The notes under the pieces are model-generated. The model saw nothing but the letters and a program-made list of their open reading frames with translations, was not told the DNA's origin and ran no database searches. Shown here in pieces: positions 1,601 to 64,000 of a DNA stretch of 64,000 bases. This stretch comes from Amoebophrya sp. A120 (taxonomy: Eukaryota; Protista; Dinoflagellata). The position numbers and the translations under genes were made by a program. How positions within the stretch are numbered: the first letter of the stretch is position 1; each line of letters begins with the position of its first letter. The stretch covers positions 14,095,265-14,159,264 of the forward strand of contig CAJINV010000001.1 in the NCBI GenBank assembly GCA_905178155.1. Direction: 5' to 3'.

Positions 1601-2331
1601 CGCCGATCCCAAATTAGCGCCGCAAACAAGCGCAGCCCCCTTCTGCGCCCGTGCGGGCCTGTTGTAGTGTTCCTGCCCGGAGTGCCAAAGCCAATAATAG
1701 CGCCGGCCGCGGGAATGACTAAACCGCCACCAGTGTCAGACAGGCGCTACACAAAAGTGGCGCGAAATAGTAAGCCACGACAGAGCGCCGTCGCCCTTCG
1801 CAGGCGATGCGGGCGTATGCCGGAAAGTGAACCAGAGCGCATCGCTCTGGCCCTCGGTCATCATTCAGCAACACTCCTAGTACGGTGCGGAGCAGCCCTT
1901 CGGGTTGAGCCCGTCCCCCGAGCCAATGAGCCAGCAGGAGCCAACGTCGGACGAGCGAGCCAATGACTCGCTCGTCCGAAGTGCGCGCAAATAAATTGGA
2001 AGAGAATCCACTCCGAGACAACATCACGACTCTGCATTTTTTGCGAAGAAACTTCCGCTCATGTTCGACACAATGAATCAAACGAGCAAGTAAGAACAAG
2101 CTACTGCTGCACAAGCACCGCAGAATGGGGAGAAGAGAACTCTCCAAAGGAAGTGTGTAGATCATCTCTCACTTTATTTATTTGGTACCGCCATGCCCTT
2201 GCTCCCGTAGGCTGGTTTCTCAGATAAGCACCATCTAGCTGAGGAATGTTCGCATTTCTTTCTCACGAACTCGAAACAGTAAGCCGTTCAAAAATCTTAC
2301 ATGGCAAAAAATTTTTTTTCATCTCACTGCT

Positions 2332-5300
2332 TTACCTTCCTCTCCGCCGACTATTGACGCACGCGAACGCAACCGCCTGGGCGGCCCACAATGCCACCAC
2401 GACCCCCACCGCGGCTGACACCACGAGGAAAATTTGAGAAAAGTCATGGAACGTGAGCTGATTCTCATCCCCAATGTCAGCGGTCGCGCAGGCGTCGTCC
2501 CTACCTGCTTCGCTTGACGCACCAGCCGCGAAACCTGGAAACCATTTCTTAGACAGCTCGTGGTCGATGTCCGGGTGTTTTCTCGAGCGCAGATACGTGA
2601 CGGCCTCCGACACTGCGTCACGAAGCGGCGAGTTTTTCGGAAATGCGTAGGCGTACTCCTGTGGACCGAACAAATCCCCCGTGACCTCCAACGGCAGGTC
2701 GCTACAGGAACGTCTCGCTTCGTCTTTCGCGGCCAGCCATTGCAATACTGGTTCGTCGTAGACACCCGCCTGTGCCTGGCCGTCCTTCACCTTATCCGCC
2801 ACGTCCACGAAGCCGTTGGCCTGGATCACGTCAACGGTTGGGAAATTGGATTCGATAAACTGCCTCGGGACATTGGTGCCGCCGGTCGGGTACTGAACCG
2901 CGATGCGTTTTTTCCCGCCCCCCGCCTGCAAATCCTCAACGGAGAAAAGCGACGGGTTTGTGTGCCGGTTCGTCAGCATCGCAGCCAAGCCTGCGACGTA
3001 GATCGACAGCCACACGGTGCCGAATACCAGCGCAATGTTTGAAAGCGTCTTTCCCGCCGGCGTCTTGATGTCGTCGATCGCGCTGTCTCTGCCGCAAACG
3101 AAAGAAAACGCGTCGTACTGCGATTTGAGTAGTTGCTGTGCGGCTTTCAAACGTTGGATGCGCTGCAAAACGCGTTGCAGATTCTTCTGCGTTGTTTCCG
3201 AAACGGTTGTCCCCGCGTCCGAACCGGTGGGGCTCTGCGGGTCTATCGCTTTTTGTTCTGCGTGGTCCTGATTCGTCGGCGAATTAGAAACTGCATCCGC
3301 AAATAGAACAACTTGTCGATGCTTCTCACTATGATCTTGCTCGTCGTTTTGCCGCTCTGAAGTTCTCGATCTCGGTGTACAACTCCATTGAGTTCGTCAC
3401 TTACTTCGGCGACAACAAGCGCTGTGGACGATGGTTTCATCTGCTCCCGCAACTGCGCAGCGTCGGTCCTACTCCTCACGATCGTGCCGCTGCTGCTCAC
3501 GGGAACGCAAACATCCAAACCCATCATCGTGCTGGTTCGCTCCAGCATTGGTGTTGGCGCGCTCGCGTGTTCCATCCGCGTCCTTTCCACCGCCTTCATC
3601 AAGAGCCGTTTCTCTTCCTTGGAAATCAGCAACTCGTTGTCGATCATGACTTCCGCCGACTCTGCGTCGAACCTACGCAATTGCTTGGCGCACTGCTCCT
3701 CCCCCTCCAGCAGCTTCACGTCTTCGGTCAAGATTTCCTCTAGCTTTTCCACCCGTTTCCGCTGGGCCAACCCCTCCACGGCCCCGATCAGCGTCCCAAC
3801 GATCACGACGAAAAGCAACAACGCAAGCCACACGTCCGTGCTGAAGGGCCGCATGAAGAAGTCGGTTGGCAGAGCTTTCAAGGAGGGCGGCTGCGACGCG
3901 ATCAAAAACTTGTACCCGGTCGAGTAGTACGGCGTCGAGAAATCGACCCGCCAAATGCGGTTTTTGAAGACCGTGATCGCGGCGACAGACACGTCTGCCT
4001 TGTTCTCGGCAGCGTACTCGATCAGTTTTCCGGTCGACTCCGCGCATCGCAGGATGATGTCGGTTTTGTCGTACCCCAGAAGTCCAAACACCTCATACAG
4101 GTGGTCGATGGTGTAACCGACCAGGTCCTGACGCCCCGCCGGGTGAAAATTTGCTGGGTCGTCGTTGGTACAGGACGGGTAATTGTTAATGCTGCCGGGC
4201 GTTATCGCCGAATCCACAAAGATCGGAAACATCTTGGTCCAGACGACAATTTTCGCCGGGAAGCTCGGGTCCTTTGTGCGTCGCTTGAACGACGCCGCCT
4301 CAGTCACCGCCCGGCAGCTCGGCGCGGACTTAATCGGGCTCCGCTCGCACATGAACTTGTCGGCCGCAAACTGCGACGCGAGTCTGCGTTTCACGTCGGA
4401 TTCAGGGAGGTTCACGGACGCACGAGACCGGTAGTAACCAAACAGGGTTGTCACGTTTTCCGGGAACAACTGCCAACGCGTTTCCAAAACTTCTGCAAGA
4501 AGGGAAGTGGGCAGTGAACTATTTCCAGTAGGCGTGCTGGTTGCGCCCTGTGCGAACAAGGAATTGATCCTTGTCGAGTTGTACACCATTTTCAGATTTA
4601 CCGGCGCTTTTCCAAAGGTGGTGACTCGCCGCACGCCATCCTCCTCGGTCAAGGCCGAAGGCTTCCAACCATAGAACAAAATCGGCTTTCTAAGTTTGAC
4701 CCCTTCCTGTATTAACGCCAGATGCTCCGCGCCAGATTGCGGGAAGACAAACCGAGATAGCAAATGCGACGGCATGTAAGTGCTACACTGTTGCGTTTGG
4801 AGGTCGCTGCTGTCAACGTACGTTTTGTTCGCATTCGCCCCGGTGACGAAATCCGGCATGAAGCACTCGCCTGTTCCGCGTACCTCCCAGCCGACGGGCA
4901 CGCCGATAATCCGCAGATCTGCGGGAATGTTGGAGAGCAAGTTTGTGCTCCCGATGTAACCGGACGGGAAACTCGCCAAACCCGGGTTTTCGTCCAAGAG
5001 CCAGCTTGGTGCGTACAATGCGTTTTCGCCCCGCACACCGACATCCACCGTCGTTCCGCCGAGGGAGTCACAGCGCTGGTCTTCGTAGTCCCAGCATTCC
5101 GGCACTACCTCACACTCATCGCGCTGCAGGGCTTGCAGTGCCGTGAAGGAGCTCGTCAGCTCTGGCTGCGCAATCGGGTCGACAGAGACCGCGTCGCCGT
5201 TGGAAGTGCGCAGCACATTCGGGAACTCGTTTTGCAAAAACGTCGACACGGTATACGCGTGTAGGTCGGAGGAAATCCAGTTCACGTTGCAGAACCGCAA

Positions 5301-5399
5301 AGCTGCAAGGGCTCCTGTCGCCATCCTTTCACGTGCCAGCGCGACGAATTTGATTGAAAGCAAGATGTATATGATGGAGAACCTCCCGAGAATCCCCAC
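2332..5399 (-). CDS. Ionotropic glutamate receptor-like ligand-gated channel with N-terminal OpuAC/ProX-like glycine-betaine-binding domain
   Basis: S1 (GYTIDHL, ADVSVAAITVFKNRIWRVDFSTPYY), M1 (FMRPFSTDVWLALL), M3 (IYVAGLAAMLT, cf. SYTANLAAFLT), S2 (YDEPVLQW, YAYAFPKNSPLRDAVS) and M4 (LTFHDFSQIFLVV). Two ORFs in different frames, both open over 3243-3396; candidate GTAAGT...AG intron 3404-3355. Start codon unresolved (GTG at 5399; first ATG falls after the signal-like segment). Confidence 0.85.
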
Positions 5400-5908
5400 C
5401 TCCCTCCTTTATGGCTCTTTTACATATCCAATGTGAACCATCAACTCCCTCTTATGACACCCCTTTTGCATTTCTCTTTATTAAGAATATCTTTGACACG
5501 GGCCGAAACCGAATGTTTTCGTTTTCTTCTTCGAAAGATGCGAGTACGCACAAACTCTAGAGTATTTAGCTGTGCTGTAATAGCAAAAGCGGCTCACGCT
5601 CGAATTCCAATTCGCCCGCTCTCATGAGTATTTCACATTGTCAGAAATCGCGCTCCTAGGAGAGTCAAAGAATATCAGAAGCCCCGAAATAAATCCCTAG
5701 TCATCCTGCACTGACTTTTGGTGAAACACACTGGTGCATGCAGAGAAATTGGGATAATTCGTGGCATTTTCATTGAGCTTACACACCGACATCTCAAAGC
5801 TTGAGCGTTTGTTCAGTACCGTTTTTCAATTTACTCTTCTACCTCGAAGCGAAGACACAACTTGGGCGCTTGGTCCTGATATACGAGAACACTATCATTT
5901 TTACGTAA

Positions 5909-6036
5909 TGCTGATTGACAAATAAAGAAACTTCGCTGCTGATTCAGATTCTATCTAACACAAAAAATACATGCTGATGCTGATCTAAAGAATTTAAAAA
6001 GGCGCTGGTGTTTGCTGATTGACAAATAAAGAAACT
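5909..6036. repeat. 24-bp perfect direct repeat plus a TGCTGAT cluster upstream of the iGluR-like gene
   Basis: TGCTGATTGACAAATAAAGAAACT at 5909-5932 and 6013-6036; more TGCTGAT copies near 5937 and 5972-5984. Confidence 0.85.
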
Positions 6037-6281
6037 AAGGACTCATTGATTCTCTTAAAAATAAACCGTGACACAGGCGGCAGAAGTCGGTTGCTATCTA
6101 CTCCTCGGTAGCTGCAATAAATCGAAATAATCCACATCAAATGGTTTTACTTTTCGAGTAGGATAATTCATTTTTTCCGCGCGACTACATTGTGAAGGTT
6201 GTGCATTGTACAATTTGAATTTCTTTTGTTACAGTTACTGAATCGCGGCGGTGTGTCGGTGAAACTCGAATCTGACCTGCA

Positions 6282-8218
6282 TCACTGCTTGTCGGTGGTT
6301 TCCTTCTTGGCCGGTGCTTTCGTCTCGACCTTCTTGGCCGGGGCTTTGGCTTCTTCCACAGCCTTCTTCGCCGGGGCTTCCGGCTCTTCACTAGCTTTTT
6401 TGGCGGCTTTGGGTTCGTCGTTGGTCTTCTTGGCACCCTTCAACACCAAGGACGGCGGGGTCAGGGCCGCGGCCTTGCCAGCGGCAGCACTTTCCGGATC
6501 CGGGTTGGTCGTGATCTGCACGGGCTCGTTGCCGCCGGTGACCGGAGCCGCACCAGGTTCCGGGATAACTGTATTGTGATGTTTTTGGGATTTAGGATAT
6601 GGATATTAAATAAAGTTCGAAAACGAAAGTGTACGAGGCCGTCTAAAGCAGAGGTGGAAAGAAACAAACTAAATTAAAATTTCTGTGTCGGCATGAAAAT
6701 AATCCTGCAGGATCTCGCTTGACTTTCTAAAAACGCAACCGTCGCGGAAACATAAACTCAAATCAAATCGAGTACCAGCTGGGTCCATCGGTGGTCCGGC
6801 TGGGGCCTTCGGGGGCGGTGGTCCGGATCCCGCGGGCGCGGCAGGCGTTGGCGTTGGTGGCGGCGGGGCGGAGCCCACGGGCTTCGGGGAGGGCGCGACC
6901 GCGTCCGTGGTGGGGTCGATCGGGGGGTTCCCGTTGGGGCAGGCGCCGGTCTTGTGTGCCACCTCGACCAGCATCTCGTGGTGCAGGTCATTCGCACGCT
7001 CGGCCGCGACTGCAAAGTTGGCGAACTTACCGCCTTCGAACTCGTCCACCTTCATACAGGGGTTCAAATCTGCGGGGACCGTGGGCGGGACCTTTCCGAC
7101 GATACCATCACCGCAGTCGACTTCCGCTCCCGGCTTGACCGACGCTGGCGGCAAGCAGGCCTCGGAACCCGGCACGATGATCGACAGCGCACCGTTGTAC
7201 AACGGATCAGAGGTAGCGTCCGGGGCACAGTCGGGCACGCGGGCACCGGCAAGGTCTTTCGCGCACCACTTGTCAGCTTCGGCCTGGTCTATGACTGGGA
7301 GAATGTTCTAAAGACGTATTCCTGGGCTTTTGTTTCATGCCAAGAGGGTAGCGCTGACGTCAGCAACAGCTGCAGTTGGTGGAGACAGATTTTTTAAAAA
7401 ATCTAAAAAACGTTTTTTCTCGCCGTCGTTCAGCACTACAAGCAAAATGGCGCGAGTACAAGGCGTATTGTGAAGTTCACAGTTTCACTTCTTTAGAATC
7501 TCTCCTGCTTAACCTCGTGGAACAACATTCGCGGGCAGCACTTCTGGCAGCTGTAGCCCGTGTTTCCGCCAGTTCCCTCCTCGAACGCGGCCTCGGTCGC
7601 CGGGGCCTCGACCGGCTCGGACACGCCCGGCAAGCAGCTGTAGTGCTGAAAGACGCCGGTTTCCGGATCGGGCATGTTGGCGCAGGCGACGCCGTAAAAC
7701 GCGGGTGGGAAAAAGCCGCACCCTCCGTCGCCCGGCATCAACTTGTCGACGCAATGCGGACCGGACGGAGCCTCGGCGGTCGCGGTCATGCTACCCGGGA
7801 TTGGCGGTGGGGCGGATCCTGGCATGTGCGGCGCCGGATTGTCGTAGCAGAACGCGTGCTTGCCGTAGAAAATGTCGTGGACCTCGTCGGGGGCCTGCTT
7901 GCTGAGGAGCCTCATCGGGTCGAACGCCTCGCAGCCGAACCCGAAGGTCCCGCGGCAGTCAATCTCCACGACATCCCAGCCTCCCTGCTTAGCGACGGTT
8001 TTTCGCTGCCTCTATTCCCTGAAAATTAACCATCCCCATCCACTTTTTGCATGACAAACACAGAATTTGCTACGTGTTTTGCATGACAAATTGGATGGGG
8101 ATGGTTAATTTTCAGGGGATAGCCTCTTTTGCTGGAAGACACTGGTCAGCCGGCCATTGGACTTCACGTGAAGTCCCGCCGCACCGGAGACTGACCCAAG
8201 AAGGGCAACACTCCGCAT
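6282..8218 (-). CDS. Putative secreted Cys/Pro-rich protein with K/E/A-rich tail (~461 aa, 4 exons: 8218-8124, 8009-7514, 7283-6776, 6568-6282)
   Basis: Splicing joins three ORF-track ORFs and a signal-like N-terminus (MRSVALLGSVSGAAGLHVK) into one frame (1386 nt). Many Cys, Pro-rich linkers, GC-rich third codon positions. Confidence 0.75.
8010..8123 (-). mobile_element. Introner-like 114-nt GC-AG intron with 31-bp terminal inverted repeats and a 6-bp flanking direct repeat
   Basis: IR 8012-8042 / 8092-8122 (1 mismatch); DR GCCTCT at 8008-8013 and 8122-8127. Removal restores the frame ...VFQQK-RQRKTVAK... Confidence 0.85.
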
Positions 8219-8678
8219 CCTCTGTGTCACCCTACAAGTCTCTTCTACGGATCAGTTTTTTGTTTGTGTCGTTTAAATTTAGATCTGGAAAAAACTTCGA
8301 TCGTCACGACACGGCTTGTAACAGAGCCACAGCACTTGCTTCACCATCTTCGAAAAGAACACAAATTCTTTTCAGTGCAATCACACAACCAAAGAAAAGG
8401 AACGACGAAAAAAAAACTGCTTCATCTGACTGCCCTTTGAAATTCAAGATCTTTAATTTGTGTAGCTCCACCGCCATGCTGATCCTGTTCGTGCAGTCGG
8501 AAACAACGACAGGAAAACAGAAAAGGCAAAAAGAGTTACTGATCTACTCGCCAGTTTAGAAGGGTGTACTTGGCACTTATTTCACCACCACCATGAGCAC
8601 GCAACCGGCGCTGTCAATCTTTATTTCTGAAGGCATTGCAATACTGCTGCCTGCTGCACTCTCCCCGAGGACCTAAAA

Positions 8679-10438
8679 TCACGTCCACAGACCAGAGGCG
8701 TCCCCACCCAGCTCTAGTGCCAGTTCCTGCATGCGGCGGTACAGTGCGGTCGCCGTCTTGTGTGATAAGCAGGGAACCCGCAAAACCTCAAGGGCCTGCT
8801 GCACATATTGCGACTTTCTCATGCCATTCAGAACCACACCGTTATTGGAAGAAGACGCGGCAACCAGCAGCGCTTGCTGCTGTAATTTGAGCGCCTGGAC
8901 GGTTTTATTTTCACCAGTGAGCTGCTCTCGAAAAATCTGTGCGAAGAGCCTCTGCATCGGCATCTGCTTCTCGACAAACTCAGCCGAGGAATCTGCGTGG
9001 GCCCAATCGTGGGCGCGAATTGTCATCCCAGGTGGCGCAATTGCGGACAGTGGCCGGTTGACAAGGCAGCACAGGTTATTCCGCTCGATAACGGCGAGAT
9101 CGGGCTCCCCGTCGAAACCTGGAACGACGTTCGGGCGGCCCAGTCTGATCCCGGGCTCCAGGGGGTTCAGCGGGGCCTGGATACCGACGAAGCCAGTGCC
9201 TTGAAATAACCTTTGGTCCTCCGCGTTCATTTCCGCAGCTGCACTATGACCAGCTGATGTATCAGCGCCACCGGCAGCGGACCGCGCATCCCCTCTCCGT
9301 GCGAGCGCGTCGATGGCGCAACCTAGCACGGATTGCAAGCTCAGGGCCTCGAATGCATTTTTTCTTCCCGTGACGGAATGGTAGCAGCTGAGAAAGTTTC
9401 CAGACACACCGTAACCGGTGATTCGCTTGCTTTTTCGCAGTGCTTCCAACGTCGCAAACGCGACCTCGAGTCGTTTGTACAGCTCCGCCCAGGCAGCCTG
9501 CAACGGCTCGCCCCGGTTCAGCGCGTCGGAGAGGTAAAATTCGGGGTTGTGAAGAAAAACAAAATCCGGGGTAGTTTGCAGCCGCGAACAGGATGCGTCA
9601 AACTCCTCGAGGAGAAAGTCCGGCTCGAGGCAGTGCCACGTCCTTTCCAAGGGTTTCACGTCGTTCGCGCGTCGCTTTTCCATACCGGTCAAATCGCCGC
9701 TGGAGCCGTTTTTCTCTTCGGGAGTCGAACCACCAGATGTGGTGGAAGGTAGTGGCTCTGAACTCGTTTCAGTTGCGGGTTTCAGTTGATTTTGTGTGCG
9801 GCTTGTATCGTCCACTGCCGATTTTCGCTGCCCTGCACCGCCCGCGGATTTCTGGCGTACGACGTTTTTGTAACGGAGGGATTTCTCGTATTCGTCCGCC
9901 GCTATCCCGTAGTTTTCCACAACTTCAGCTGGCACAGTGATATGGCCAACTTTTGTCACGACGACGCACTCCTTGCGTTTCGCCTCCCCCCGGGCCCTCA
10001 GGCAAGCGCCAATCATCTCTTCCGATTCCCCGGGATACCTGTAATGTAGAAGGGATCGTCTTCGATCGTCCTCTTCCTGCAACGTCACTTCGTTTCTTCA
10101 GGAACCTTTTTGCTAACACCAGGAGCAGTCGGGGCCACGGTTCCAAGCAATCCTTTCTCAGTGTCGCATCACGACTACACCAAATAAGAAATACTGTATC
10201 TTTTAACAAGGCAAAAATACTTTTGACCATAGTGGGTGCTCGTTTCCAACAGATTGACCGCACCGGAGTCTACTGCCGCTTCCAACGCTTCGAAGCACCG
10301 CGACGACCCGATTCTGTACGCCCCGAAACCTATGCTGCTGCAAGTGAAGCGACCGACCCGCCGCACGTGCGTTGGATGCACCTTGCCCGCAGCCACAGCC
10401 TGGCGCAGCAGCTCGCGAGTTGCTTGTGCAGACGCCAT
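8679..10438 (-). CDS. Aldo/keto reductase family protein (exons 10438-10221, 10038-8679)
   Basis: SIGFGAYRIG, NLLETSTHYG..GESEEMIG, VVVTKVG, DFVFLHNPE, ITGYGVS, IQAPLNPLE, VVLNGMR; GT-AG intron 10220-10039. Confidence 0.85.
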
Positions 10439-10874
10439 GTTCCTGTTGCTCTTGCTGTACTTTCAACGAGGCGAGGATTGTCGACTTTATTGCTGTCTTT
10501 TGTGCAGCTGAGGTTGCTTGAGCTTGTTAGTTCTGTTGTGCGTCGCTGTCTCTCACTGAATGGCTCCGAAAATGAAAGGCCACATAATTCTCGCAAAAAA
10601 AACCGTTTACCAACAACGCAGATACTGACACGTGCCTTCGTCGTCTGGCAGTTGCTCTGCAAAGTCGTAGAGGAACAGAAAAGCCCTAGCTCACTTTTAA
10701 TCCCGCGGAGCCGCTGTCCTCTGTAACCATTCTCGCAATCATGGCCCGGCGCTCGACGCCAAACATTGCGTGTTGATTCATTTGCGTGATGTTTCTTCGT
10801 CATAAGTGCGTTACGTCGTACTAGCCACTGTAGGTCAACAATGCGCAAGAGGAGCCATGTGATCGCTCTTTTCA

Positions 10875-12590
10875 TCAGAGCATGATCCTTTGTAGGCCGG
10901 GGCCCCATTTCTGTTCGTCGGCAAAAGTCTTCCCTAAAAACAACACCCACACCCCTGAAGTCAGGCCGAACGACAACACTAGCCCGAGAAGTTCGGTCCG
11001 CACGGACTGCATCGGGTGCGCAAGCGTCAGACACAGCAGTGGCACCAAAAAGTATCGAAATTCCAGGAGAGGTAGCGCTGCTAAAGACAACACCGTGCAA
11101 AATCCGAAGACGAAAAGCTGTGATCTGTAAGGCCCGAGCGCTAACTCCCGTGCGGTAAGAAGAGCTGTTTTTACAGCAGCTTGTTGATCTCCTTTTTTGC
11201 CGCTTGCGTCATCCTCTGACTTTGTCGTCTTTTTCTCTTTTTCATCATTACCCCCGGTGTCTCCGGCTCTACCGCCGAGGTACAACAACGTGGCTGCAGT
11301 TGCAGCCAGAGGGCACGCGACGATGCGCAGTGGTGGTTTGGAGAATACCCGGCGCCACGCGTAGAACGAAAGGTGTCGGTTGTCGGCAAGTAGGAATGGG
11401 TGTGCGAGTACCAACGTGCTGCAAAGGGAAAAGAAGACCCAAATCTTAAGTGTGAGGGCCGCCGTTTCCGCCGTTAAGAAGTCTTCTTTGAGTAACTCGA
11501 AGGTCTTCGTTATGCTTCCTGTCCGGTAGTAGTCTTCAACATTTCTTGGAAAGAAGAAGCCGAGCGTTGGGAGTAAGACACCCAGATACAGCAGCATCGC
11601 CAGGTGCGGGCTAATTTGGTGGAACTCCTGGTGTCCCAGCGCTAGTTGCCCATTGTTCCACTTCACGAACGTGAGGAAACCGACGCCAGCGGCGATGTGG
11701 AGTGGCAGTCTTCTTATCGCGATGCTGCTGCATTTTCCAATCAGCAACCGCATACCCGCGAAGGACCGCACGTGCGCAGTAACGTCGGCCATACTGGTCA
11801 GCCGGGCCTCTGTCAACAGGTCGGCGAGGGCCGCTGCGAATACCCAAACGATGTTCAGTTGTCGGGCGAACAGGCTCGCACATCCAAACACGCCTGCTGC
11901 TCTGGTGTGCCGCTCGAGGTGACATTTCAGCATGAGCAACAAAAGCAGGGTGGACAGCGTCTCGGTGTAGAAGATAAAGTGGTAGAAAAACGACACAAAT
12001 AGCAAATGCCCGCGGAGCGCACGTAGTATTACCGCTGGGATCAGCACTTCGCCTGCAGATGCAGTCGTTTTTTCGGCGGCTTTACTACCTGCTTCCGTAG
12101 TTGTGATCTCGGATCTTCCTGATCCATCTTTCCAGCTGCCACAGTAGCTGCTTCCATGATGCAGCGTCGTGAGGATGCTGACGAGTACCACAAAACATAG
12201 CGGGCCGAAGGCTAGCGCGTTGATGCCTCGCAGGAAGCCGACACTACACACAGTCGTCAGCTCAACGTCCCCCACCAGGCCGAACAGCTTACTACCCCCT
12301 GCCAACGCGGAGGACGCCGTAGCTGCAGCGAGATATATTCCCGGCGGCGTAGTTATCTTTGGATCCCACTGGACGTCTTCGAGTCTTGTAGCGTTGCAGA
12401 ATCGTTGCGCCTGCGGGACGTGAAATAATTCGTCCATGTAAGGCTCAGGAACGTGGCGCTGCATCAAGGCGTAGAGCACGCCGTGCAGGAGGATGACGAT
12501 ACCCAGGGCCTCGACAAAGGTTCCGCTCCTCATCAAGGTCTTGGGAGAAATTGCACTATCAACTTCGTGCAGACTCATGGTTTTGCGCAA
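10875..12590 (-). CDS. ALG10: Dol-P-Glc:Glc2Man9GlcNAc2-PP-Dol alpha-1,2-glucosyltransferase (ALG10/DIE2)
   Basis: VPEPYMDELFHVPQAQRFC, WDPKITTPPGIY, RQLNIVW, HPFLLADNRH, LLEFRYFLVP, C-terminal QRIML; multiple TM segments. Confidence 0.95.
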   Translation of the reverse strand: MRKTMSLHEVDSAISPKTLMRSGTFVEALGIVILLHGVLYALMQRHVPEPYMDELFHVPQAQRFCNATRLEDVQWDPKITTPPGIYLAAATASSALAGGSKLFGLVGDVELTTVCSVGFLRGINALAFGPLCFVVLVSILTTLHHGSSYCGSWKDGSGRSEITTTEAGSKAAEKTTASAGEVLIPAVILRALRGHLLFVSFFYHFIFYTETLSTLLLLLMLKCHLERHTRAAGVFGCASLFARQLNIVWVFAAALADLLTEARLTSMADVTAHVRSFAGMRLLIGKCSSIAIRRLPLHIAAGVGFLTFVKWNNGQLALGHQEFHQISPHLAMLLYLGVLLPTLGFFFPRNVEDYYRTGSITKTFELLKEDFLTAETAALTLKIWVFFSLCSTLVLAHPFLLADNRHLSFYAWRRVFSKPPLRIVACPLAATAATLLYLGGRAGDTGGNDEKEKKTTKSEDDASGKKGDQQAAVKTALLTARELALGPYRSQLFVFGFCTVLSLAALPLLEFRYFLVPLLCLTLAHPMQSVRTELLGLVLSFGLTSGVWVLFLGKTFADEQKWGPGLQRIML

Positions 12591-13735
12591 ACTTTATTTG
12601 TGGCCGCTTTCTTTTCTGGCTGCCGCTGCTCCGCCACTGGGACGCTGGCGGTAGCAACAACTTTACCCCGAAGAAACTACTCTTTACACGATCCTGAGAC
12701 TTTTATTTTCATGGTCATGCACCAGCTTGGCCGATTCATTTTTCTGCCGCCTTGGCCTTAGGCGCGTCTAACTCCGAAAAAGCGCGATCTGAAAATCAAC
12801 TTCTGTGGTAGTTGCTATTGATTCTGATCTTTCAGCAACGGTATCGGGGGTACGAGCAATGTACAATAGACTCGACTGCACCTTGATCTTCGTACATATT
12901 TGGCGCAACTAAAAAGCGGTGCCCAGATCCATGTAAGAAACGGAGTGAACGAGAACCGGCGCTCCACAAATGAGATCAACACGTCTCTCATTATCATCAA
13001 TGGCGGAACGCAGTATCTGCGATCACGTCGAATGGAATGGAACCAACCTATACTATCACGAAAATGAACACCATCAATATGCGCTGCCTGCTCTTCATGT
13101 TGCTTTGCTGGTGGTCTTAAAGTTAGTGACTGTTGCATGCGTTTGTGTGCGTTAGTGATACTGCACCATTCGTTGTACCTTCTTGATGTTGCTCTTGATG
13201 TACCAACAGCAGCATACTTGGTCGTTCATTTTTTGAAAATTTCTTGTTCTCGACCCTTTCACACGCAAGCAGGGTCGGGCTCGGCTAGCTAACTGAGAGT
13301 AAGAACCACTCTGAGGAAGTCGAACGTGCAGCCTTTTTTTCAAAATTTCATTTATCAACGTACCCAAGTCCACCAGAAAAGAACTAGAGCACCGCAACAC
13401 AGCTACTGACGAGGTATCTCTGCGTTCCAGCGTCAGCAGTCTTGACAAAATGCTCAATAGTCGAACTTTGTCTCGTTGACATGCCTCATCAACATGTAAA
13501 CAAATTATAGTAAACAAAAGTAAAAGTAAAACTAACAGTTCGGTCTCCCCCCGACCGAGAAACATAGATAAGTACTCTGACCTCTCGTAGTTCTATGGTT
13601 CTGAAAAACAAAATGCACTCGAACGAAGTCTCGCAGTTGCGAAAAGGTGCAGCAGTGCGCTCTTGGCAGCACCGTGGCGGTGATGTGAGTCGTGTGATAC
13701 GGTACCACATGAAACAAATATCTGTAATATCCTTA

Positions 13736-14719
13736 TCACAGTCCGTGTCGTTCCCGTAAGCTTTCCCACTCGGCTTTGGTTTTTTCCGTCTCCGCGGGCC
13801 GCGAAATTACAAAGAGACTAGTTTCGACAAGAATGTACCCGCCCGGATGCTGGTCGTCGTCATCGCCGGGCGAAGAGGTGGCTGCTGCCATCACGTCAAA
13901 CATGGAATTAGTGCTACTGTACGCGGTGGACGCCGCCGATGATTCTCGACGAAAGGCCCCGGGGAAAGGGAATGCTGCCTGACTATAGCCTCCACACCAA
14001 GAACTGCCGCCTCCGCAGGACCGTGGTGCGCCGACTGATACTAGAGCTCCTGACGATGTTGGTGTTGACGTAGTGCAAGCCGTGGAATTTCGTTTACGCG
14101 GTGAGTTACGAGCTGTTGTACCAGACCCAGGAATTCTGGCACCCTCCAACACCGGGGACGAGAGCGATGCGACGGGCCCGGGGAGCGCAAACGGTTCTAT
14201 GTCTTCTTCCCCAAAAGTTTGCCCACACTGGAGCGCGCGTACCGGAAAAGGGGAAGATAATATCATCTCCTCATCCGAGTGGTAGCGCTCAACATCGAAC
14301 GCAGCATGGGAAACAACAGGGGATGAGAGCCCGAGGCTGGAGGCGCTATCGGAACTTGGCCGCCGCTGGCGCCGCCGGGACGAGGACCACATTGGAGGTG
14401 GAGATGTGAACGGTGAGAGCGCCGGCGAGGAGCCCGGAGATACCATTGCCGTCGGGTTTAGAAATCCACCGGTTGCGGTTTTTTTCGGCCACGAGTTCCG
14501 CTGGACCCATGATTCTTGCGCCCGACCCCGAAGCAGGGAAGCCGCGCTGCGGGTCTTGCGTTCGTGCACCTCCACTTTCAGCAGACCCCGCTTTTCAAGT
14601 TCCGCGAGCGCGCCACTGATTTGCTCGTGAAAGAGCTTGTCTGCGCCTTGCGTGTCCATAACTTGACCGGGGTCGTGCGGGTTGCGGTAGACCTTGGTGC
14701 CAGACGTGAACACTGCCAT
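13736..14719 (-). CDS. Hypothetical Ser/Pro-rich protein (327 aa)
   Basis: Long ATG-started ORF on the gene-bearing strand; low complexity; no recognised domain. Confidence 0.6.
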   Translation of the reverse strand: MAVFTSGTKVYRNPHDPGQVMDTQGADKLFHEQISGALAELEKRGLLKVEVHERKTRSAASLLRGRAQESWVQRNSWPKKTATGGFLNPTAMVSPGSSPALSPFTSPPPMWSSSRRRQRRPSSDSASSLGLSSPVVSHAAFDVERYHSDEEMILSSPFPVRALQCGQTFGEEDIEPFALPGPVASLSSPVLEGARIPGSGTTARNSPRKRNSTACTTSTPTSSGALVSVGAPRSCGGGSSWCGGYSQAAFPFPGAFRRESSAASTAYSSTNSMFDVMAAATSSPGDDDDQHPGGYILVETSLFVISRPAETEKTKAEWESLRERHGL

Positions 14720-14903
14720 GCCATTTCCGGGCGCAAGTAAAAGCAGAACCTGTAGTAGTAGTTAATGATGCAACTCCTTTTTGTAGTAGTAGTAGCACCG
14801 TTGGAGCACCAGCAACTCCTTTTAGTACTCTCGCAAACAGCACAAAAATCTTTCTCGAACACTATTTCATTGGAAAAAATAAAAAAACATCTATCGTCAA
14901 AGA

Positions 14904-16445
14904 TCAATAATCATGAGATCGCACCTCTTCAAAAAAGTGCTGCGTCGCTTCCAGGCAGGCGGCCTGCCTCTGCTTGTCGTGCTTATGGCGACAAAACGGA
15001 ATTCCCCCGCAGCTCTGAGCGTCACCGTCGACAACTTTGCAGATGCAGAGCCCGTCGTTCATGTATACCAGATTGATCTCGTCACGCAAGTTCGGCAACA
15101 GATTTTCCCTTTTTAGACTGGAGATAATTTCGCGATTGTCAACGACGGCAGACTCCATGAGCTGCACCTCCCGCGAAAATTCCGGGTGAGAGAGCACGCC
15201 TTTGATGCGCGGCGGGGCACTACTGTCATACAACGAGGTCGCCGCGGTTGCGCGGGACGAACCCTGTGGGATCATTTCCAGAGTCTCGCCCGCGTTCTGC
15301 ACCACCAGGGTATCTTCGTGGATCGGCTCCACCGGGGGTGGGCTTGCCCGCGGTGTTGACGAGGTAGTGCGTGAAGTGCGTGGAAGCCCGCCTCCGACAC
15401 CACCAGCTGCGGTCGAGCCCGGGCGCAGAGAGGCTGGGCTGCTCGGCGACGCCCATGGAGATATACGAGATTCGGCCGGACCGGTCGCCCGCCACAGCTT
15501 GCATGTCATCGCTGGTGCTGGGTGGTCAGAAAGGTCATGATCATCGCCATCGGACACATCTTCATCTTCTTCGTCTCTTGCATAGATTTGAATTTCCATG
15601 GGGTCTGCTTCTGACTGTGGACGATTAGGTCCCCGCAGAATATCAGATAGCTCGCCCTCACTGATTAGCCGAGTCCGACGTGTTGGGACGACATCCTGCT
15701 CGTCGTCTTCGTCATCGGGAGCTTCTGCGATGCAATGGGGGGGCGAGGAGCAGGTTTCTTTGCTGATCACGGAGCAGAAGGAATGGCCGAGCCTGGAAGA
15801 TGACGCCCCACCCTGGCGAGCGCAACAGGAACAGGGCCCATCGCAGTCGTGCCTGTAAACTGTCTCACTCGGCACTCGTTTTTCCCAGTCAAAACCGAAA
15901 AGCGCGGTGTCCACGCGGGATAGATCGCCGGGAGTCATGAGGGCGAGCCTCTGCATCGGTTTCTCATCTGCTCTCCGGCAGCTAAGCTCCAGGAGCTTGA
16001 TTTCGTCTTTCTTCTCGCAACACGAGGTCGACCATACTTCTTTCTCAACTTGCACTTGGTCATGATTCTGAACTTTTGTCCCGTCAACGCCTGGCGACCC
16101 TGCGGCGGATTTTTGCTGTTCTTTCGTGCACCTGCACGGAGCCTTGGTGAAGGTCTGCTCCAAAAAGCGCACCACAGCAAGCGGATCCAATGGCAAACCG
16201 TGCTGCCAAACGTGCTTCAATTGAGCGAAATCTAGAGATTTTTCCTCAGTGTCGGGCTGGTGTGCAGGGAAATGGATGGGAGCCGATGCTCTCGTTGCGG
16301 CAGAGCTCGCATCAACATACTCTGTTCCTTGGTTCGAGGGCCGACCTCGATGAATCCCAGATCCAAAAAGGAGAGCGTCTGCCACTAGCGGAAGAAAACT
16401 ACTTCCGGCAAAGACGGCGATGCCGATGCGCTCATACGGGCCCAT
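14904..16445 (-). CDS. Hypothetical protein (513 aa) with N-terminal hydrophobic segment and Cys clusters
   Basis: Long ORF, co-oriented with neighbours; no recognised domain. Confidence 0.65.
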   Translation of the reverse strand: MGPYERIGIAVFAGSSFLPLVADALLFGSGIHRGRPSNQGTEYVDASSAATRASAPIHFPAHQPDTEEKSLDFAQLKHVWQHGLPLDPLAVVRFLEQTFTKAPCRCTKEQQKSAAGSPGVDGTKVQNHDQVQVEKEVWSTSCCEKKDEIKLLELSCRRADEKPMQRLALMTPGDLSRVDTALFGFDWEKRVPSETVYRHDCDGPCSCCARQGGASSSRLGHSFCSVISKETCSSPPHCIAEAPDDEDDEQDVVPTRRTRLISEGELSDILRGPNRPQSEADPMEIQIYARDEEDEDVSDGDDHDLSDHPAPAMTCKLWRATGPAESRISPWASPSSPASLRPGSTAAGGVGGGLPRTSRTTSSTPRASPPPVEPIHEDTLVVQNAGETLEMIPQGSSRATAATSLYDSSAPPRIKGVLSHPEFSREVQLMESAVVDNREIISSLKRENLLPNLRDEINLVYMNDGLCICKVVDGDAQSCGGIPFCRHKHDKQRQAACLEATQHFFEEVRSHDY

Positions 16446-17373
16446 TGTGACAATGATTCCGAAATGGCGTTATTGCGAATGCGATGGATATAGTATAGGT
16501 AAAGTGAGGCCAAGGGTTATACATACTTATAGGTGAAAATGGTACAAATTATATAAATTATTTTGCCCAAGGAAGCACGTATCGGCATTCTCTTCGTGGT
16601 TGCATGTAGTTGGTCGTTGCGACAGCCGAAAATGATAAAAGCGGATATACCACAAAAACAGAGTCAGAGCGAAGTAGTTATTGTCAACATTTTTAGCAAG
16701 AGGTGGCAAGATAATTGAAGATTATTAATGTCTGAAACTGAATCAAGGCATCGATTGCCAGCAATATAGTGTTGTGATTGTCGGTTTTCACAGATATCGT
16801 ACATGGAAAAACGGCGTTTAAAGTACTTGACAGATGAAGCGATGCGGTTTGTTATTTTGCTTTTAGAGCATTTGCTAGGCTTCAGGCAGTACGCGGTGCC
16901 GGCAACGAAAATTGGGAGGTATCATAATGTTGTAGCTAACTACCTTATTCTCTAGTGTCTTTCCAAAGTTAGCGCTGGGCTGTGACAAAGTAATGAAGTC
17001 AGTAGCGAAGTGGTCGGCCGAAGTTCTACCACGACAAAATCAAAGAAGGCTCCTCGTCGCATTGGCAGCACACCCCCGAAGAACTACTTACGTATTGTTT
17101 AAAATTAAGTGCAAATAATTAATAATGTCCAAAAGTGTTAGCGACAGTCTATCTCCTCTCTGTTTCTAGCTCTACGACTATCGCTTACGTTTACCGTTCG
17201 CGCCTAGGGCTATCGATGTGGTGTAATCCCGCAATACCTACTCGCCCTGATCATGGTAGTTGTGGATGGTGATATCGTTGACGCGGGAAAAGTGAGCACG
17301 GGTAGCCTTCGTCTTGTGTAAACCAGCTACGGTATGAAGATCTTTATCTACCTACGGTTTATGATTTATTGAG

Positions 17374-20260
17374 TAGGCCAGACCCGGCAGGCCCTTTTCG
17401 GTAGGTCGGTAGGTAGTTAAGTAGGGCGATGCTGTGAACTAGATAGCATTGGCGTTAGCTACCTCGTATGACGAGCGGAGTCGGATATAGAAAGCAAGCT
17501 AATTCCCGGGACAGTTTTCTTCGTAAAGATGCGTTGTGGAGGTGTTCAGCCGACTCCGTTGGTTTTGTGCATGTTGACGCGCATGAGACAAGTACGCTTC
17601 ATGACAACTACACACCTCTTCTTGTTTTGCCACGAAAATAGGGGGGCCTCCCGCACTTCTACCGTGGTTCGAAATACACACGCGGGTATCTTGTCCGGAG
17701 ATAACTGCTCCGAGGACGGAGCGCGTGTGGGCCGCTGTGCGCAGCACATGCGTTCGGGCCTGGGGAGTCACACTCTGGCGGGCTTCCATTACCATTTCCA
17801 ATGCGTGTGCCGCGTGAATGACTGACAAAACGAAAACCGCAGGCAAGTATGTGTCGCAAAGACAGAGGCTGTAGCGCGTGCCCCGCGCGTGAGATGCTTG
17901 CTCCACTTGTCACACAAAAATAAACGCACTAGACAAGACCACGCGCCATGCTGGGGCGCGGCTCAACGCGTTGCGAGCAGGCGCGCGAGGAAAGCCACGC
18001 CAAGGCGTGGCCCTTCCGAAACCTGAAATAGCTGCAGCCAGCGCATAGACACGCGGCGGAGAGCCACGCTGCTTCGACGATGCCGGGGCTGGTAGGTCGG
18101 TAGGCCGGCCCCGGCAACGATGATTGACGCTCCGCCAGGCCTTGGTCTGCTGCGAGATCTGGGGCGCAGCTGTCTACCTACCTACTGAGAAACCGAAAAA
18201 GTGCCGCCCACACATTTGCAACCGACGCAGAAGGCCATGCCCAGTCGTGTCCGCCGCTTCTTTCTGCTGCGCGCGCCAGGGGCGGGGGCCGAAGGCCGGC
18301 CCTCGGCCGCGGAAGCCCCGCCAATCACCTATTTTGCAGAAGCTTGGGCCCCCGCCGGCCAGATAGAAAGCCCACAGCCACGGTGGCTAGCTTGGGCGCC
18401 TGTGCAAAAGCTGGGGCGCAAACCCCCGGACGCGTTCTGTCTACATTCATACCTCGGCGCCGGAGGTGCGGACGTTTTTCGAAGCATCGAACCCGGGGGC
18501 CCCAGCCTTTGCGAGCTTTCTACGCACTTTGGTAGGGAGCTGGCTCGGTAGAAGCCTTGGGCAGTGCGGGTCGCCTAGAGCCCTCCTGCAAAACTTGGAC
18601 GCCCCGGCCTTTGCGAGATTTCTGTTGCCGCTGCATGCTCTCGGCAGCGGGGAATGAAGCTGGCCCGCAAAAGCTGGGGGCCCCAAAGTCCGCGCGCTTT
18701 CGATTTCGGCAAGTTTTGGTCTGCCTCATATGAGCTAGCTGCTAGGCCGGGGGGGCGGCCTGGTTTTAAGTTGAGCCACCTGCGCTCGGCTCGATGGCTG
18801 TGCGTGGGCCCTCTGTGCCGGCGATTGGGGTAGGTGAGTTGGGCCTGTATTCTAGAGCGCTGGCCCACGCCCCCCGCCGGCTAGTGCGGTAGCTCGGGCA
18901 GAGGGAGAGGGCGCACCCGCGCCAGACCCAGGCCCATTGCGCCGCGCCGGCAGGCGCAGCAGTAGGTAGGCCGGGCAGGTGATGCTAATGCAACACCTGC
19001 CCTGTTCGCCGGGCAGGTGTAACACTTGCCCGGACCGGAAGGATCAGGGCAGTGTGGTGGCGCGGATCAGCCGCGCCACCACACAACCGACAGCAATAGG
19101 TGGACCGGGGGGCCCGCCTAGCCCTGATTTGCGCAGGCGGCCGGCACACCTTAGAAGGCAGGCCGGGCAACCCAACAATGACTCCCGCCGGCCCACCGCC
19201 ATCTTGGTAGGTAGGTCGGGCACTTGGCCTAGCTGGCACCGGTCGGGGCCAGCTACGGGCCGTCGGAGCCAGGCCCGGAAGGCCGGGCTTTTCTGATCGC
19301 CGCCAGCGACGCACAACCCAGACCCGCCGTCTGGTAGGTAGATCGGGTAGGGCGCGGCCGCGGAACTCGGAGCGCCGCCAGCTACACCAGCCAGAGGGCG
19401 GGGGTAGGTAGGTCGGGCGCGTTGCAGTTCCCCGGCCCAAGCCACTTGCAGTCTGCGGCACATGGTAGGTAGGTCGGGTAGATGGGTCGGGGACAGAGGT
19501 CAAAAGGCAACCGGGTGGAGTAGGTAGGTAGGGGAGGTAGGAAATTTCTGGCCGGCGCGCTTCTGTTGGGCGCCTCTAGCTGGCATCAGCCCGCCCTACC
19601 TACTGCACGGCGTTGCCTGCATGTAGTTGGCGCAAGTCGGAAGCGAAGCCTCGACCCTGCCGGCCTACATGCACATAAGTAGGTAGGTCGAGTAGATCCG
19701 GGAATGTTGCCTAGCGGCAGCTACGGGCCGCGCTCCATAGTAGGTAGGTCGGGCGGGTCGGGGATCTCTTATCTGCGCGGCCCGCATACACAACGACTAC
19801 TAGTCGCTGGTAGTAGGTAGGTAGGGCAGACCGGAGATCATCTCTGACCCACCCGCGCGAGCTAGCGGCGCCGGGCGGACGTAGGTAGGTAGGGCACGTC
19901 GGGAATTGTTGAAAGGCGCCTGCTAAGAGATAGGGCGAGTCGTAGGTAGGTAGATTGGCGCCCTGTGATCCGCACCAGCTACGGAGGCTAGTCACTAGTA
20001 GGTAGGTAGGGCGGCCCGAGACCTATGCTCTGTGGCAGCTCGGCCGATAGTAGTAGGTAGGTCGGGTACCTCGCCCCGCGCTGGGACGTGCATGACTGTG
20101 GCCAACCCGATAAAGGTAGGTAGGTAGGAGGGTAAAACCACGGGAGGAAAGACACTACGACCGCGCTCGAGGTAGCTAACGCCAATGCTATCTAGTTCAC
20201 AGCATCGCCCTACTTAACTACCTACCGACCTACCGAAAAGGGCCTGCCGGGTCTGGCCTA
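17374..20260. mobile_element. Non-autonomous DNA transposon-like element, ~2.9 kb, perfect 93-bp TIRs (the outer TA is the probable target-site duplication)
   Basis: 17374-17466 is the exact reverse complement of 20168-20260 (TAGGCCAGACCCGG...GTTAGCTACCTCG). GC-rich interior; no transposase ORF seen. Confidence 0.92.
19207..20128 (+). repeat. Regularly interspaced GTAGGTAGG(T[C/A]GGG) motif array inside the TIR element
   Basis: Copies at ~19207, 19334, 19404, 19465, 19520, 19595 (inverted), 19679, 19740, 19813, 19881, 19942, 19998, 20053 and 20116, separated by non-identical spacers. Confidence 0.9.
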
Positions 20261-20927
20261 TTGGATTTATTCGCATAATCAACTCACGGCCTACTTCTTT
20301 CTCAGAGTGTAATCATAGGGTTAATGTGTTAATGATCTCCTCGGTGGCGACGATCGGAGAACTTCGTTTCTTCGATCTTACAAGATCTGGTCCCACTGCA
20401 GGATGGGGCTGGGGACTTTGTCGTGCATCCTCCACGCACCCTGCGAAGATCTCCACGATTCAACGAAATCTGAGCTAATGAAGATCAGGAGCAGTGTTGT
20501 GTATGCAATAAATCTATGATCCGTACAGCGTCGACTCTACAGCTGACATGTTGGACGCACGATGGACCTCCCTCGGACGATGTTGCTGTATACACGATTT
20601 GGACTTGTTTTGACGACGATGAGGAGGATCGAAGTGAAAACGTAAAACGACATAGCCGGAGCAACGATTCATTCCAAGGCAAGTGAGCTTTGACCCTGAA
20701 GCGAAGTTTATTTTGGTACGGGCGAGGGGTGACGTTAACATTAACTTCTCCTTCTCCACCCCGACGTAACGTTACATCACCTTCAGTGCAAACTGCATCT
20801 GTAGAAGAACATCACAACTAAGACGCAGATAAGACATTTCGTCCAATTAGGACGATGCCACTCTCTGAAAAAATGTTCGTTGATGTTGTCGTCGTTCGCT
20901 GTGTCGCTGCAAGAAATTCATTCAAAT

Positions 20928-23318: not shown

Positions 23319-24557
23319 TCATATGTCTTGAAGCAAGCCGAGTGGAATGGGGAGCGGACGCAGTCCGCAGTATTCCCGAGCGTAGGGCTTTGCCTCGTAC
23401 TGCTGGTGCTTTCTCTCCGCGAGGTAGAAGACGTTTTGGTCTCCGTCCACAATCTCCGTTCGCACGATGGAATCCTCGTCCATCGATGCCGGATATTTTT
23501 CTGGGAACTGTTTTCTCACCGCTTTCGCAAACGCAGCCTTCGTCTCTTCGGCAATCTGTTTTTGGTTCTCGTTGTAGTACACAATTATCGAGCGGTACTG
23601 GCTACCACTATCGTTCCCCTGCTGGCAGTACTTGGTCGGGTCATGCGCGATCCAGAAGTGGCGCAGGATCTCGCGGTAGGAAATCTTAGACGGTTGAAAC
23701 TGAACCCGGACCACTTCTGCGTGATTCGTCACACCCCGGCAGACTTCGGAATAGGTCGGGAACGCCGTTGGCCCTCCGCAGTACCCCGCCTGGGTACTAA
23801 CGACCCCGGGCAAGTGCCAGAATCTGCTCTCGGCACACCAGAAGCAGCCGAAGCCAAACACTGCGGACTCGACAGTTTTCGCGGCAAAGGAGCCCGGTTT
23901 TGGGTTATTTGTGGGACCGGTCAATTTGCGTGGCATGGAAAGGGTAGTTACAGCTGCGGGATACGAGGCTTGGAAACTCGCTTCGTCTGCAGTTCTATTA
24001 TCGGCAACAACCAAAGGCCCATCAAACACGTAATGCCTTTCGTCGGAATTGGGAAAGTCCATCGGCACCGCGTAGGTTGTGCGATCCGATTTCAAGCATC
24101 GGTCGATGGGCAGCAACGTTGTTTCTTTCTTTCCTCCGTAAGATGAACTCCCACCATCGTCGCCTGCGAGATTCGTCGTGTCGCCCATGACCAGCGACTT
24201 CTCGATGTTGATCGTCGCCAACTCGAGCTCTGTGTTGGCGAGCTGCTTTTGCAGATCGTTGATTGCCTCAGCATCCTCCCCTTCAAGCTCAATCCCTTCT
24301 TCTGGCAAGGGATCGTCTGCATTCTCATTATTTTGCTTGCTCTTCTCCTCCGCCGCTGTTATCGCAGAAGCGACTTTTTGTCCCAAGTCAATTTGTTTCA
24401 GCAGCACGTCGCGCGCCCGGTGTGCAAACTGGATTTCCTGTTGCAAACTCTCAATCTTCTCGCTGTTCTTGCGCATCTCCTCAGTCAGCATGCGCATGCG
24501 CTGTACGAGTGACATGTTTTCCCTGTCTGGGATCGGCGCAGGCACCGCGGTCGCCAT
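23319..24557 (-). CDS. msrA: Peptide methionine sulfoxide reductase A with N-terminal coiled-coil extension
   Basis: FGFGCFWCAE, GVVSTQAGYCGG, PTYSEVCRGVTNHAEVV, HDPT..QGNDSGSQYRS, FYLAERKHQQY, YCG. Confidence 0.93.
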   Translation of the reverse strand: MATAVPAPIPDRENMSLVQRMRMLTEEMRKNSEKIESLQQEIQFAHRARDVLLKQIDLGQKVASAITAAEEKSKQNNENADDPLPEEGIELEGEDAEAINDLQKQLANTELELATINIEKSLVMGDTTNLAGDDGGSSSYGGKKETTLLPIDRCLKSDRTTYAVPMDFPNSDERHYVFDGPLVVADNRTADEASFQASYPAAVTTLSMPRKLTGPTNNPKPGSFAAKTVESAVFGFGCFWCAESRFWHLPGVVSTQAGYCGGPTAFPTYSEVCRGVTNHAEVVRVQFQPSKISYREILRHFWIAHDPTKYCQQGNDSGSQYRSIIVYYNENQKQIAEETKAAFAKAVRKQFPEKYPASMDEDSIVRTEIVDGDQNVFYLAERKHQQYEAKPYAREYCGLRPLPIPLGLLQDI

Positions 24558-63621: not shown

Positions 63622-64000
63622 GCTGCAGTATCAGGAGAGATTGCACTGAGAATTATGTCGCTGCCCCGGGGTCCTCAAGGGCTGTGCGCCAAAAGATTTT
63701 GCCGACTCTGTTGTTGTCCGTCCTGATGACAAAGGCCGGAATTTTTGCGAGGCTCGATAGCGGAAACGTAAAGCGAATGAGCAGGAAGATGTTGTAGGTT
63801 AGAGCCGTCGCGGTGATGAATCCTCACTTGCTCTGGTGCCCAGGAGAAGCGGGCTCGGTGATTTGTGCTTAATGCGCTACCTCCGTCATCATGAAGGAAA
63901 ATCAAACTATCAGTCGTGGTGCTTTAGTTGCTCTATTGTCAGAGGGTGAAAAGGAAAAACATAAGGTCTCACGTTCCATCTTAGTCGTACTCACATGTTG

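Follow-up and report, generated by a model that had tools for sequence, protein, structure and literature searches.

Does a parasitic dinoflagellate carry a glutamate-receptor-type channel whose outermost domain has been exchanged for a bacterial-type osmolyte-binding domain? The question is raised by a gene on the minus strand of the window, a stretch of 64,000 nucleotides from Amoebophrya sp. A120 (GenBank assembly GCA_905178155.1, contig CAJINV010000001.1, positions 14,095,265 to 14,159,264). A sequence-only reading had described the gene as a chimera of an ionotropic glutamate receptor (iGluR) and an N-terminal domain resembling the class II substrate-binding proteins OpuAC and ProX. The amino-terminal domain (ATD) of animal and plant iGluRs is class I, LIVBP-like. 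Our analysis indicates that the gene is of the iGluR kind, its usual front domain being exchanged for one that appears able to bind a ligand. The fusion of a class II front domain to an iGluR core is almost certainly a real architecture, and in this copy we observed that it is split over two reading frames. All five motifs quoted for the N-terminal domain are present on the minus strand within the first open reading frame (ORF1).

A HMMER search with the front domain against 1.84 billion representative sequences returned six matches, namely the domain itself and five unnamed proteins (P0004 to P0008). The link to P0008 has an E value of 6.9e-5, at 25-26% identity to the front domain. Two of the five homologues contain the whole fusion, each in a single frame. 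P0005 (1095 aa, with a leader peptide) aligns to residues 37-631 of ORF1 (30%) and to residues 65-344 of the second frame, ORF2 (40%); P0008 (812 aa) matches both OpuAC (E 1.7e-19, 70.9 bits) and Lig_chan (E 7e-10) above cut-off. The sequences of P0004, P0006, and P0007 cover the front domain only, and P0004 scores 18.7 bits on OpuAC against a cut-off of 21.2. These data bear out the proposed chimera and place the gene in a small family of channels of the glutamate-receptor type, which is likely eukaryotic.

The search for relatives was extended to other sequence collections. Four of 38 candidate stretches with channel-core relatives were fetched from GTDB; three encode GluR0-type channels without a front domain, one is a fragment, and the fusion occurs in none of the four. 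A channel-core search of viral contigs was negative for all 60 candidate stretches. In metagenome contigs, 38 of 247 stretches held relatives of the front domain, and their ORFs resemble stand-alone bacterial binding proteins, some being longer merely through upstream read-through and a few being cut by contig ends. The simplest reading of these sequences would be a eukaryotic fusion derived from a bacterial binding protein. Word-index protein searches yielded 1/5497, 1/5764, and 2/7999 candidates; these searches are insensitive and uninformative on rarity, and two of them missed P0005 although it was in range. No paralogue of the channel gene was found within the 64-kb window, the only region searched.

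We then assigned the front domain to a structural class. A phmmer search of the domain alone against the PDB gave nothing useful, and the same was true of NCBIfam. The six-sequence profile, searched against the PDB, placed the dimethylsulfoniopropionate (DMSP)-binding protein RnDmpX (7YLE) first (E 0.0026), followed by ChoX and two OpuAC entries (E 0.11-0.39). An initial AlphaFold model, built from the six family sequences with zero bacterial rows, reached a predicted local distance difference test score (pLDDT) of 56; Foldseek placed OpuAC, DmpX, and TmoX on top (E 5e-8 to 1.5e-7), and VIA aligned 258 residues with DmpX (Z 16.6, root-mean-square deviation (rmsd) 3.7). A second model was built from 26 sequences, the six plus 20 of 38 bacterial relatives hand-picked to exclude duplicates and fragments, and gave a pLDDT of 79.5 and a predicted template modelling score of 0.79. 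Its leading VIA matches were RnDmpX (Z 19.0, rmsd 3.0, 253 aligned), OpuAC (18.6), ChoX (18.4), ProX (18.4), and TmoX (17.2), of which RnDmpX, OpuAC, ChoX, and ProX are tied within 1 Z. The onium-binding group fills rows 1-13, row 14 falls to Z 10.5, and Foldseek concurs. This second model depends on the added bacterial rows; the first is independent of them.

The predicted fold of the front domain is thus that of class II binding proteins of the betaine/DMSP type. Profile and fold searches both back the earlier assignment to an OpuAC/ProX-type protein at the ATD site, the AlphaFold and Foldseek check giving the same closest group, class II onium-solute binding proteins, for both models. No class I (LIVBP/ANF) chain occurs among the matches listed in the Foldseek and VIA searches of either model, and Pfam found no match to PF01094 at E<=1 in the ORFs of the gene, P0005, or P0008. 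The domain is larger than first estimated, about 320 aa instead of ~280. One result weighs against the assignment. Of the Pfam families named for the check, SBP_bac_3 and Lig_chan were recovered at the locus, and the isolated front domain fell short on OpuAC (E 0.32, 11 bits against the cut-off of 21.2).

To look for a ligand pocket, we compared the domain with RnDmpX, which, in the accessible portion of its description (PMC10030565), binds DMSP via W35, T64, W84, E113, W152, A153, Y200, and W202, with Y200A and Y200F abolishing binding. In profile alignments (A4 columns), all five aromatics are kept: W35, W84, W152, Y200, and W202 align with W44, W106, W174, Y246, and W248. Identity extends to five of the eight pocket positions, the others being T64 to S87 (alignment uncertain), E113 to N129, and A153 to E175. 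The Asn at the Glu113 position is a further point against the assignment to this group. P0008 keeps the five cage aromatics and the Glu. Trp is retained at the W35 and W84 positions by 6/6 family sequences. W152 is replaced by Tyr in P0005 and by Phe in P0004, and Y200 by Leu in P0006 and by Phe in TmoX. In the 20 bacterial relatives aligned, the cage residues are found in 19 (W35), 20 (W84), 12 (W152), 20 (Y200), and 20 (W202), the counts for W84, Y200, and W202 being influenced by the search pattern that selected these sequences. Because the cage is common to the bacterial relatives, it does not single out DMSP. The front domain of intact family members probably binds an onium solute; that DMSP is its main ligand seems rather unlikely.

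The bacterial binding-protein subfamily (L001-L038) lies near DmpX and TmoX; its members mostly have Ile in place of Glu113 and an acidic residue in place of Thr64.

In the channel core, a ligand-binding domain split into S1 and S2 halves, with M1, a pore loop, and M3 between them, was observed to be colinear with P0005. In ORF1, the Pfam family SBP_bac_3 passed its cut-off (E 4e-7) and Lig_chan-Glu_bd fell short of it (E 4.9e-5); in ORF2, Lig_chan passed (E 2.9e-8). Through P0005, Thr479 and Arg484 of S1 and the Asp of YDE in S2 align with AMPA-receptor motifs; we take the Thr/Arg pair in S1 and Glu/Asp in S2 to be the amino-acid anchors. The M3 gate motif SYTANLAA reads IYVAGLAA in the gene, with Thr and Asn changed, VYIASLAA in P0005, and LYTANLAS in P0008. 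A TVGYG filter is absent from ORF2, P0005, and P0008 and present in the GTDB channels L039-L041. The best PDB sequence matches of P0005 and P0008 are AMPA, NMDA, delta, and kainate receptors. The loop between M1 and the pore spans 108-232 aa. Taken from sequence, these features suggest an amino-acid-gated, probably non-selective cation channel.

The claim that the gene holds a complete S1-M1-M3-S2-M4 receptor did not hold, as the parts are distributed over two frames and the frame break had been overlooked (Table 1). ORF2 lies in the -1 frame relative to ORF1, with an overlap of 154 nt (3396-3243). There is no Met in ORF2 ahead of M3; its first Met (2979) lies inside M3 and starts a 215-aa protein. 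The public annotation lists ORF1 (693 aa) and this ORF2 tail as two proteins.

Table 1. Features of the channel locus in window coordinates
Feature	Position	Strand	Basis or remark
ORF1	5408..3243	-	721 codons stop to stop; holds binding domain, S1, M1, and ~175 loop residues
ORF1 from first usable ATG (5324)	3243..5324	-	693 aa; separate protein in NCBI, nr, EukProt
ORF2	2332..3396	-	354 codons stop to stop; loop remainder, pore helix, M3, S2, M4
Predicted class II substrate-binding domain, OpuAC/ProX/DmpX/TmoX group, at ATD position	4341..5306	-	profile, fold, and pocket alignments
Cage codon starts	W44 5279, W106 5093, W174 4889, Y246 4673, W248 4667	-	alignment
S1 half of ligand-binding domain, with Thr479 and Arg484	3873..4256 (approximate bounds)	-	Pfam, P0005 alignment
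M1 transmembrane helix	3771..3833	-	hydropathy 2.79; aligns with M1 of P0005
Frame break (-1) in long M1-pore loop	3243..3404	-	ORF overlap; contigs; sequence
Probable pore helix or re-entrant loop; TVGYG filter absent	3085..3123	-	precedes M3; matches P0005
M3, degenerate SYTANLAA motif (IYVAGLAA)	2971..3048	-	motif and P0005 alignment
S2 half of ligand-binding domain, Asp at AMPA-receptor Glu position	2473..2955 (approximate bounds)	-	Pfam, alignment
M4 transmembrane helix	2365..2442	-	hydropathy 2.29 (ORF2 321-339); aligns with M4 through P0005
Transcribed unit	2164..5445	-	single unspliced contig per run spanning both ORFs; 4/4 likely-RNA contig runs, 2 samples, 1 study
In-frame ATG with TAA 10 codons later (short upstream ORF, or broken/intron-like start region)	5409..5441	-	sequence; 5409-5445 covered by X1 contig only
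Signal-peptide-like stretch in ORF1 frame, starting at GTG	5337..5399	-	no in-frame ATG behind the stop; hydropathy peak

Four likely-RNA contigs, X1 (2178-5445), X2 (2167-5397), X3 (2197-5397), and X4 (2164-5371), run across the break with neither a gap nor a differing letter, and a splice joint across it occurs in none of the four. In X3 and X4, introns of adjacent genes are spliced out, so these two behave as RNA; X1 and X2 have no such intron joint, and their RNA status rests on bounded cover and the tool's guess. Transcripts showing the two parts to be separate genes had been named as evidence against the chimera. We found both parts on one transcript contig, yet in two frames and with no splice, so that this objection holds in part.

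The start of the gene is a second anomaly. The leader-like stretch has a 13-residue hydropathy peak of 2.5, compared with 2.06 and 2.08 for the leaders of P0004 and P0005, and none of 144 control upstream segments was both open and equally hydrophobic. It sits behind an in-frame TAA (5411-5409) and ahead of ATG 5324, and a GTG (5399) is all that precedes it as a possible start. Contigs X2 and X3, from two samples, end at the same base, 5397, inside this GTG and without overhang, which faintly suggests that a transcript starts or branches here. An inverted match of 21 nt (488-508/5418-5438) probably arose by chance (E 0.81). Third-position GC across 2335-5324 is 0.73 and 0.69 in the two halves, compared with 0.56-0.63 in six other long ORFs.

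Several other accounts of the break were rejected. An assembly error was ruled out by the agreement of the four likely-RNA contigs with the DNA-like contig X6 (1978-8041), which also crosses the break without gap or mismatch. A constitutive intron was ruled out for the samples seen, as the contigs contain no joint, and a restart at the ORF2 Met was ruled out because this residue lies within M3 and the pore would be lost. Stop-codon reassignment would not mend a frame shift, and neighbouring genes are long and open under the standard code.

Since two anomalies, the break and the start, are found together with no observed splice, we tentatively favour recent loss, with slightly less than even confidence: the gene would be a family member split in two frames, likely recently broken and likely still transcribed, and most of its RNA probably yields no whole channel. 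Several observations weigh against this reading. The cage and ligand-site residues are intact with no sign of decay, and lineage-specific changes number 95 versus 87 (p 0.55, a comparison of low power at 30-40% identity). As there is no rate excess, any loss must be recent on the scale of these homologues. The break region has the lowest GC of the gene (0.46, with flanks at 0.57-0.60; a value this low occurs in 2% of 1324 coding windows), and the GTAAGT at 3404 is the sole one in the gene, with 3 in 28,530 coding nt elsewhere. The strongest candidate for an intron is the 50-nt stretch 3404-3355, which scores 17.1 bits where a simple frame shift scores 13.0, and its removal would leave a loop of 132 aa versus 131 in P0005. 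Finally, the RNA evidence comes from two samples of one study, and contigs drop rare splice forms. It is possible, if doubtful, that the gene is live, with a short intron from 3404 (50, or 137/170 nt) mostly retained and spliced in a minority of transcripts or at another stage to give a channel of ~1000 aa. Translation would begin at GTG 5399 or at ATG 5441 joined across a 39-nt GT-AG stretch, with retention as the switch. The GTAAGT lies at the edge of a low-GC, low-coding stretch, of which the first 50 nt from 3404 score as non-coding; frame-restoring acceptors exist, the loop length agrees with P0005, substitutions are not in excess, and odd boundaries are possible, as more than 60% of introns are non-canonical in two Amoebophrya strains according to the accessible part of their description (PMC7789003). 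The stretch 3420-3340 forms a long hairpin (z -1.86, 9/200 shuffles; one of five windows, chosen post hoc). Against a live gene, the joint is seen in 0/4 likely-RNA contigs although X3 and X4 skip neighbouring introns, and the public annotation has two proteins. As 506 GT/GC-AG pairs could restore the frame, one candidate means little. The three GT-AG introns spliced in 1800-21000 (175-207 nt) end in TACAG and none begins with GTAAGT, unlike the candidate. The GTAAGT itself may carry no special weight, U1 small nuclear RNA being undetected in the two strains in the same portion of that source (PMC7789003).

Other explanations would keep the unspliced message useful or restrict the role of the front domain. 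A single-pass protein displaying the onium-binding domain as a sensor, decoy, or channel-subunit regulator would fit the 693 uninterrupted codons of ORF1, its presence on transcript contigs, and its intact cage. We consider it improbable: ORF2 is as conserved as ORF1 (40% to P0005), and a dispensable half would not last; S1 without S2 is half a domain; and no leader peptide is encoded from ATG 5324. Programmed -1 ribosomal frameshifting could act at C AAA AAG (3255-3249), one codon ahead of the ORF1 stop, the sole slippery-like heptamer in the ORF1 frame within the overlap, with a hairpin beginning 7 nt downstream. The heptamer is not of the form X XXY YYZ, the hairpin is no stabler than shuffles (z 0.06 and -0.46), and the homologue P0005 requires no shift, which makes frameshifting highly improbable. 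It also seems very improbable that the front domain has the fold and serves only in assembly or trafficking of a plain amino-acid-gated iGluR. The varying cage of P0004, P0005, and P0006 would agree with such a role, as would the assembly function of the ATDs of known iGluRs described in the available text of PMC3483616; the W35 and W84 positions kept in 6/6 sequences and the five aromatics kept in the gene's protein and P0008 argue otherwise. The boldest combination, a marine-protist onium-solute receptor whose front domain came from bacterial DMSP/betaine transporters and whose full channel is released in the parasite by splicing of a retained intron, is in our judgement unlikely.

By homology, an intact member such as P0005 or P0008 would bind an amino acid in the S1-S2 clamshell, which would pull on M3 and open a tetrameric, probably cation-non-selective pore. 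With its cage of four Trp and one Tyr, the front domain would close around a solute bearing a methylated onium group, such as DMSP, glycine betaine, choline, or trimethylamine N-oxide, and may tune opening allosterically, like the ATDs of NMDA receptors, instead of gating alone. Such modulation is the likelier role because ATDs are drivers of assembly and, in NMDA receptors, also bind modulators, as stated in the sections seen of PMC3483616. If recent loss is correct, most transcripts of the Amoebophrya copy would yield at most a single-pass fragment with the binding domain, S1, and M1, unable to form a pore.

Eukaryotic iGluRs and glutamate receptor-like proteins (GLRs), including AMPA, kainate, NMDA, delta, and plant GLR types, share with the gene the order S1-M1-pore loop-M3-S2-M4, the S1 Thr/Arg, an acidic S2 residue, an M3 motif that is recognizable if degenerate, M4, and an extra binding-protein domain in front. 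In the gene this domain is class II OpuAC/DmpX-like and not PF01094, the M1-pore loop is 108-232 aa, and the copy is frame-broken. No similarity to the plant GLR hit P0009 was found. In the accessible part of an earlier survey, all iGluRs contain PF01094 and none were found in the unicellular eukaryotes examined (PMC2924276). RnDmpX (of the DmpXWV transporter), TmoX, ChoX, OpuAC, and ProX resemble the front domain in fold across its whole length (Z 17-19), and RnDmpX shares the four-Trp cage and the Tyr needed for DMSP binding. Unlike this group, to whose top VIA rows it is 12-16% identical, the domain has Asn for Glu113 and is fused to a channel instead of working with an ABC transporter, its ligand being a prediction. 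Bacterial GluR0-type channels (3 complete GTDB examples) share the ligand-binding and pore core, and differ in being 355-396 aa long, having the TVGYG filter, ending after S2, and lacking a front domain. The archaeal CosB/CosT, as described in the portion available of PMC8050422, likewise use an OpuAC-family protein for sensing and not transport; they are separate prokaryotic proteins with chemoreceptor output and no ion channel.

Searches of the literature for OpuAC with ionotropic glutamate receptor, and for Amoebophrya with glutamate receptor, found no papers. We found no description of the OpuAC-iGluR architecture in the literature searched, judging from the entries listed, and with little access to subscription papers and none to the InterPro architecture tables. 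Diatom GLRs have been described, betaine being unmentioned in the accessible part of that paper (PMC11085791).

Descriptions of known eukaryotic iGluRs give them a single type of ATD. A class II onium-binding domain at the ATD position would represent a second, independent fusion giving a two-layer receptor, and indicates that what sits above the ligand-binding domain is exchangeable. To our knowledge, how eukaryotic plankton detect DMSP or betaine is an open question. The DmpX-like pocket and the two intact homologues offer a direct route to it, and the intact relatives may sense algal osmolytes. If the family does consist of onium receptors, it would be a candidate means by which eukaryotic plankton and their parasites convert DMSP or betaine to an electrical or calcium signal. 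The front domain could also find use as a module for chemogenetics or biosensors. The broken copy lowers the value of the locus for the parasite's own biology, not for the family, and the intact homologues are better to study. Of the earlier suggestions, two-input gating is inferred and host sensing by the channel is speculation; for the dinoflagellate parasitoid Parvilucifera, the accessible part of one study reports that dimethyl sulfide (DMS) activates zoospores and that DMS and DMSP did not attract them (PMC4878280).

The surroundings of the channel gene show several further features. A Pro/Cys-rich gene at 5697-8244 (-), with no clear Pfam match, is covered in sample S2 and barely or not in sample S1. 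X3 and X4 lack three introns of this gene, of which 6569-6775 is GT-AG, 7286-7512 has non-canonical ends, and 8008-8121 is a hairpin element. The latter is introner-like, with 35-nt inverted arms that are 94% complementary and a short direct repeat at its ends, and its very high summed depth in a DNA-like run points to a likely many-copy family. Non-canonical introns and hairpin-type elements at the locus fit the description of Amoebophrya given in the accessible part of PMC7789003. Among 14 long ORFs scanned, 10 had no Pfam family at E<=0.001. Neighbours with Pfam assignments are an aldo/keto reductase (8679-10097), ALG10 (10875-12593), MsrA (23322-24626), a GlcNAc 2-epimerase (31800-33515), and a calpain (36855-38858), and a weak Ulp1-like protease match at 61651-63630 is below the Pfam cut-off. 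The region 18400-20300 is repeat-rich, with many variant copies and joints in DNA-like and RNA-like contigs. A 30-nt tandem repeat with inverted arms upstream occupies 1308-1578, and a 49-nt direct repeat (94%; 613-661 and 1965-2013) brackets 1.35 kb downstream of the channel gene, possibly as a transposon remnant. The minus strand also carries 16 of the 17 other long ORFs (>=330 codons), which are thus co-oriented with the channel gene.

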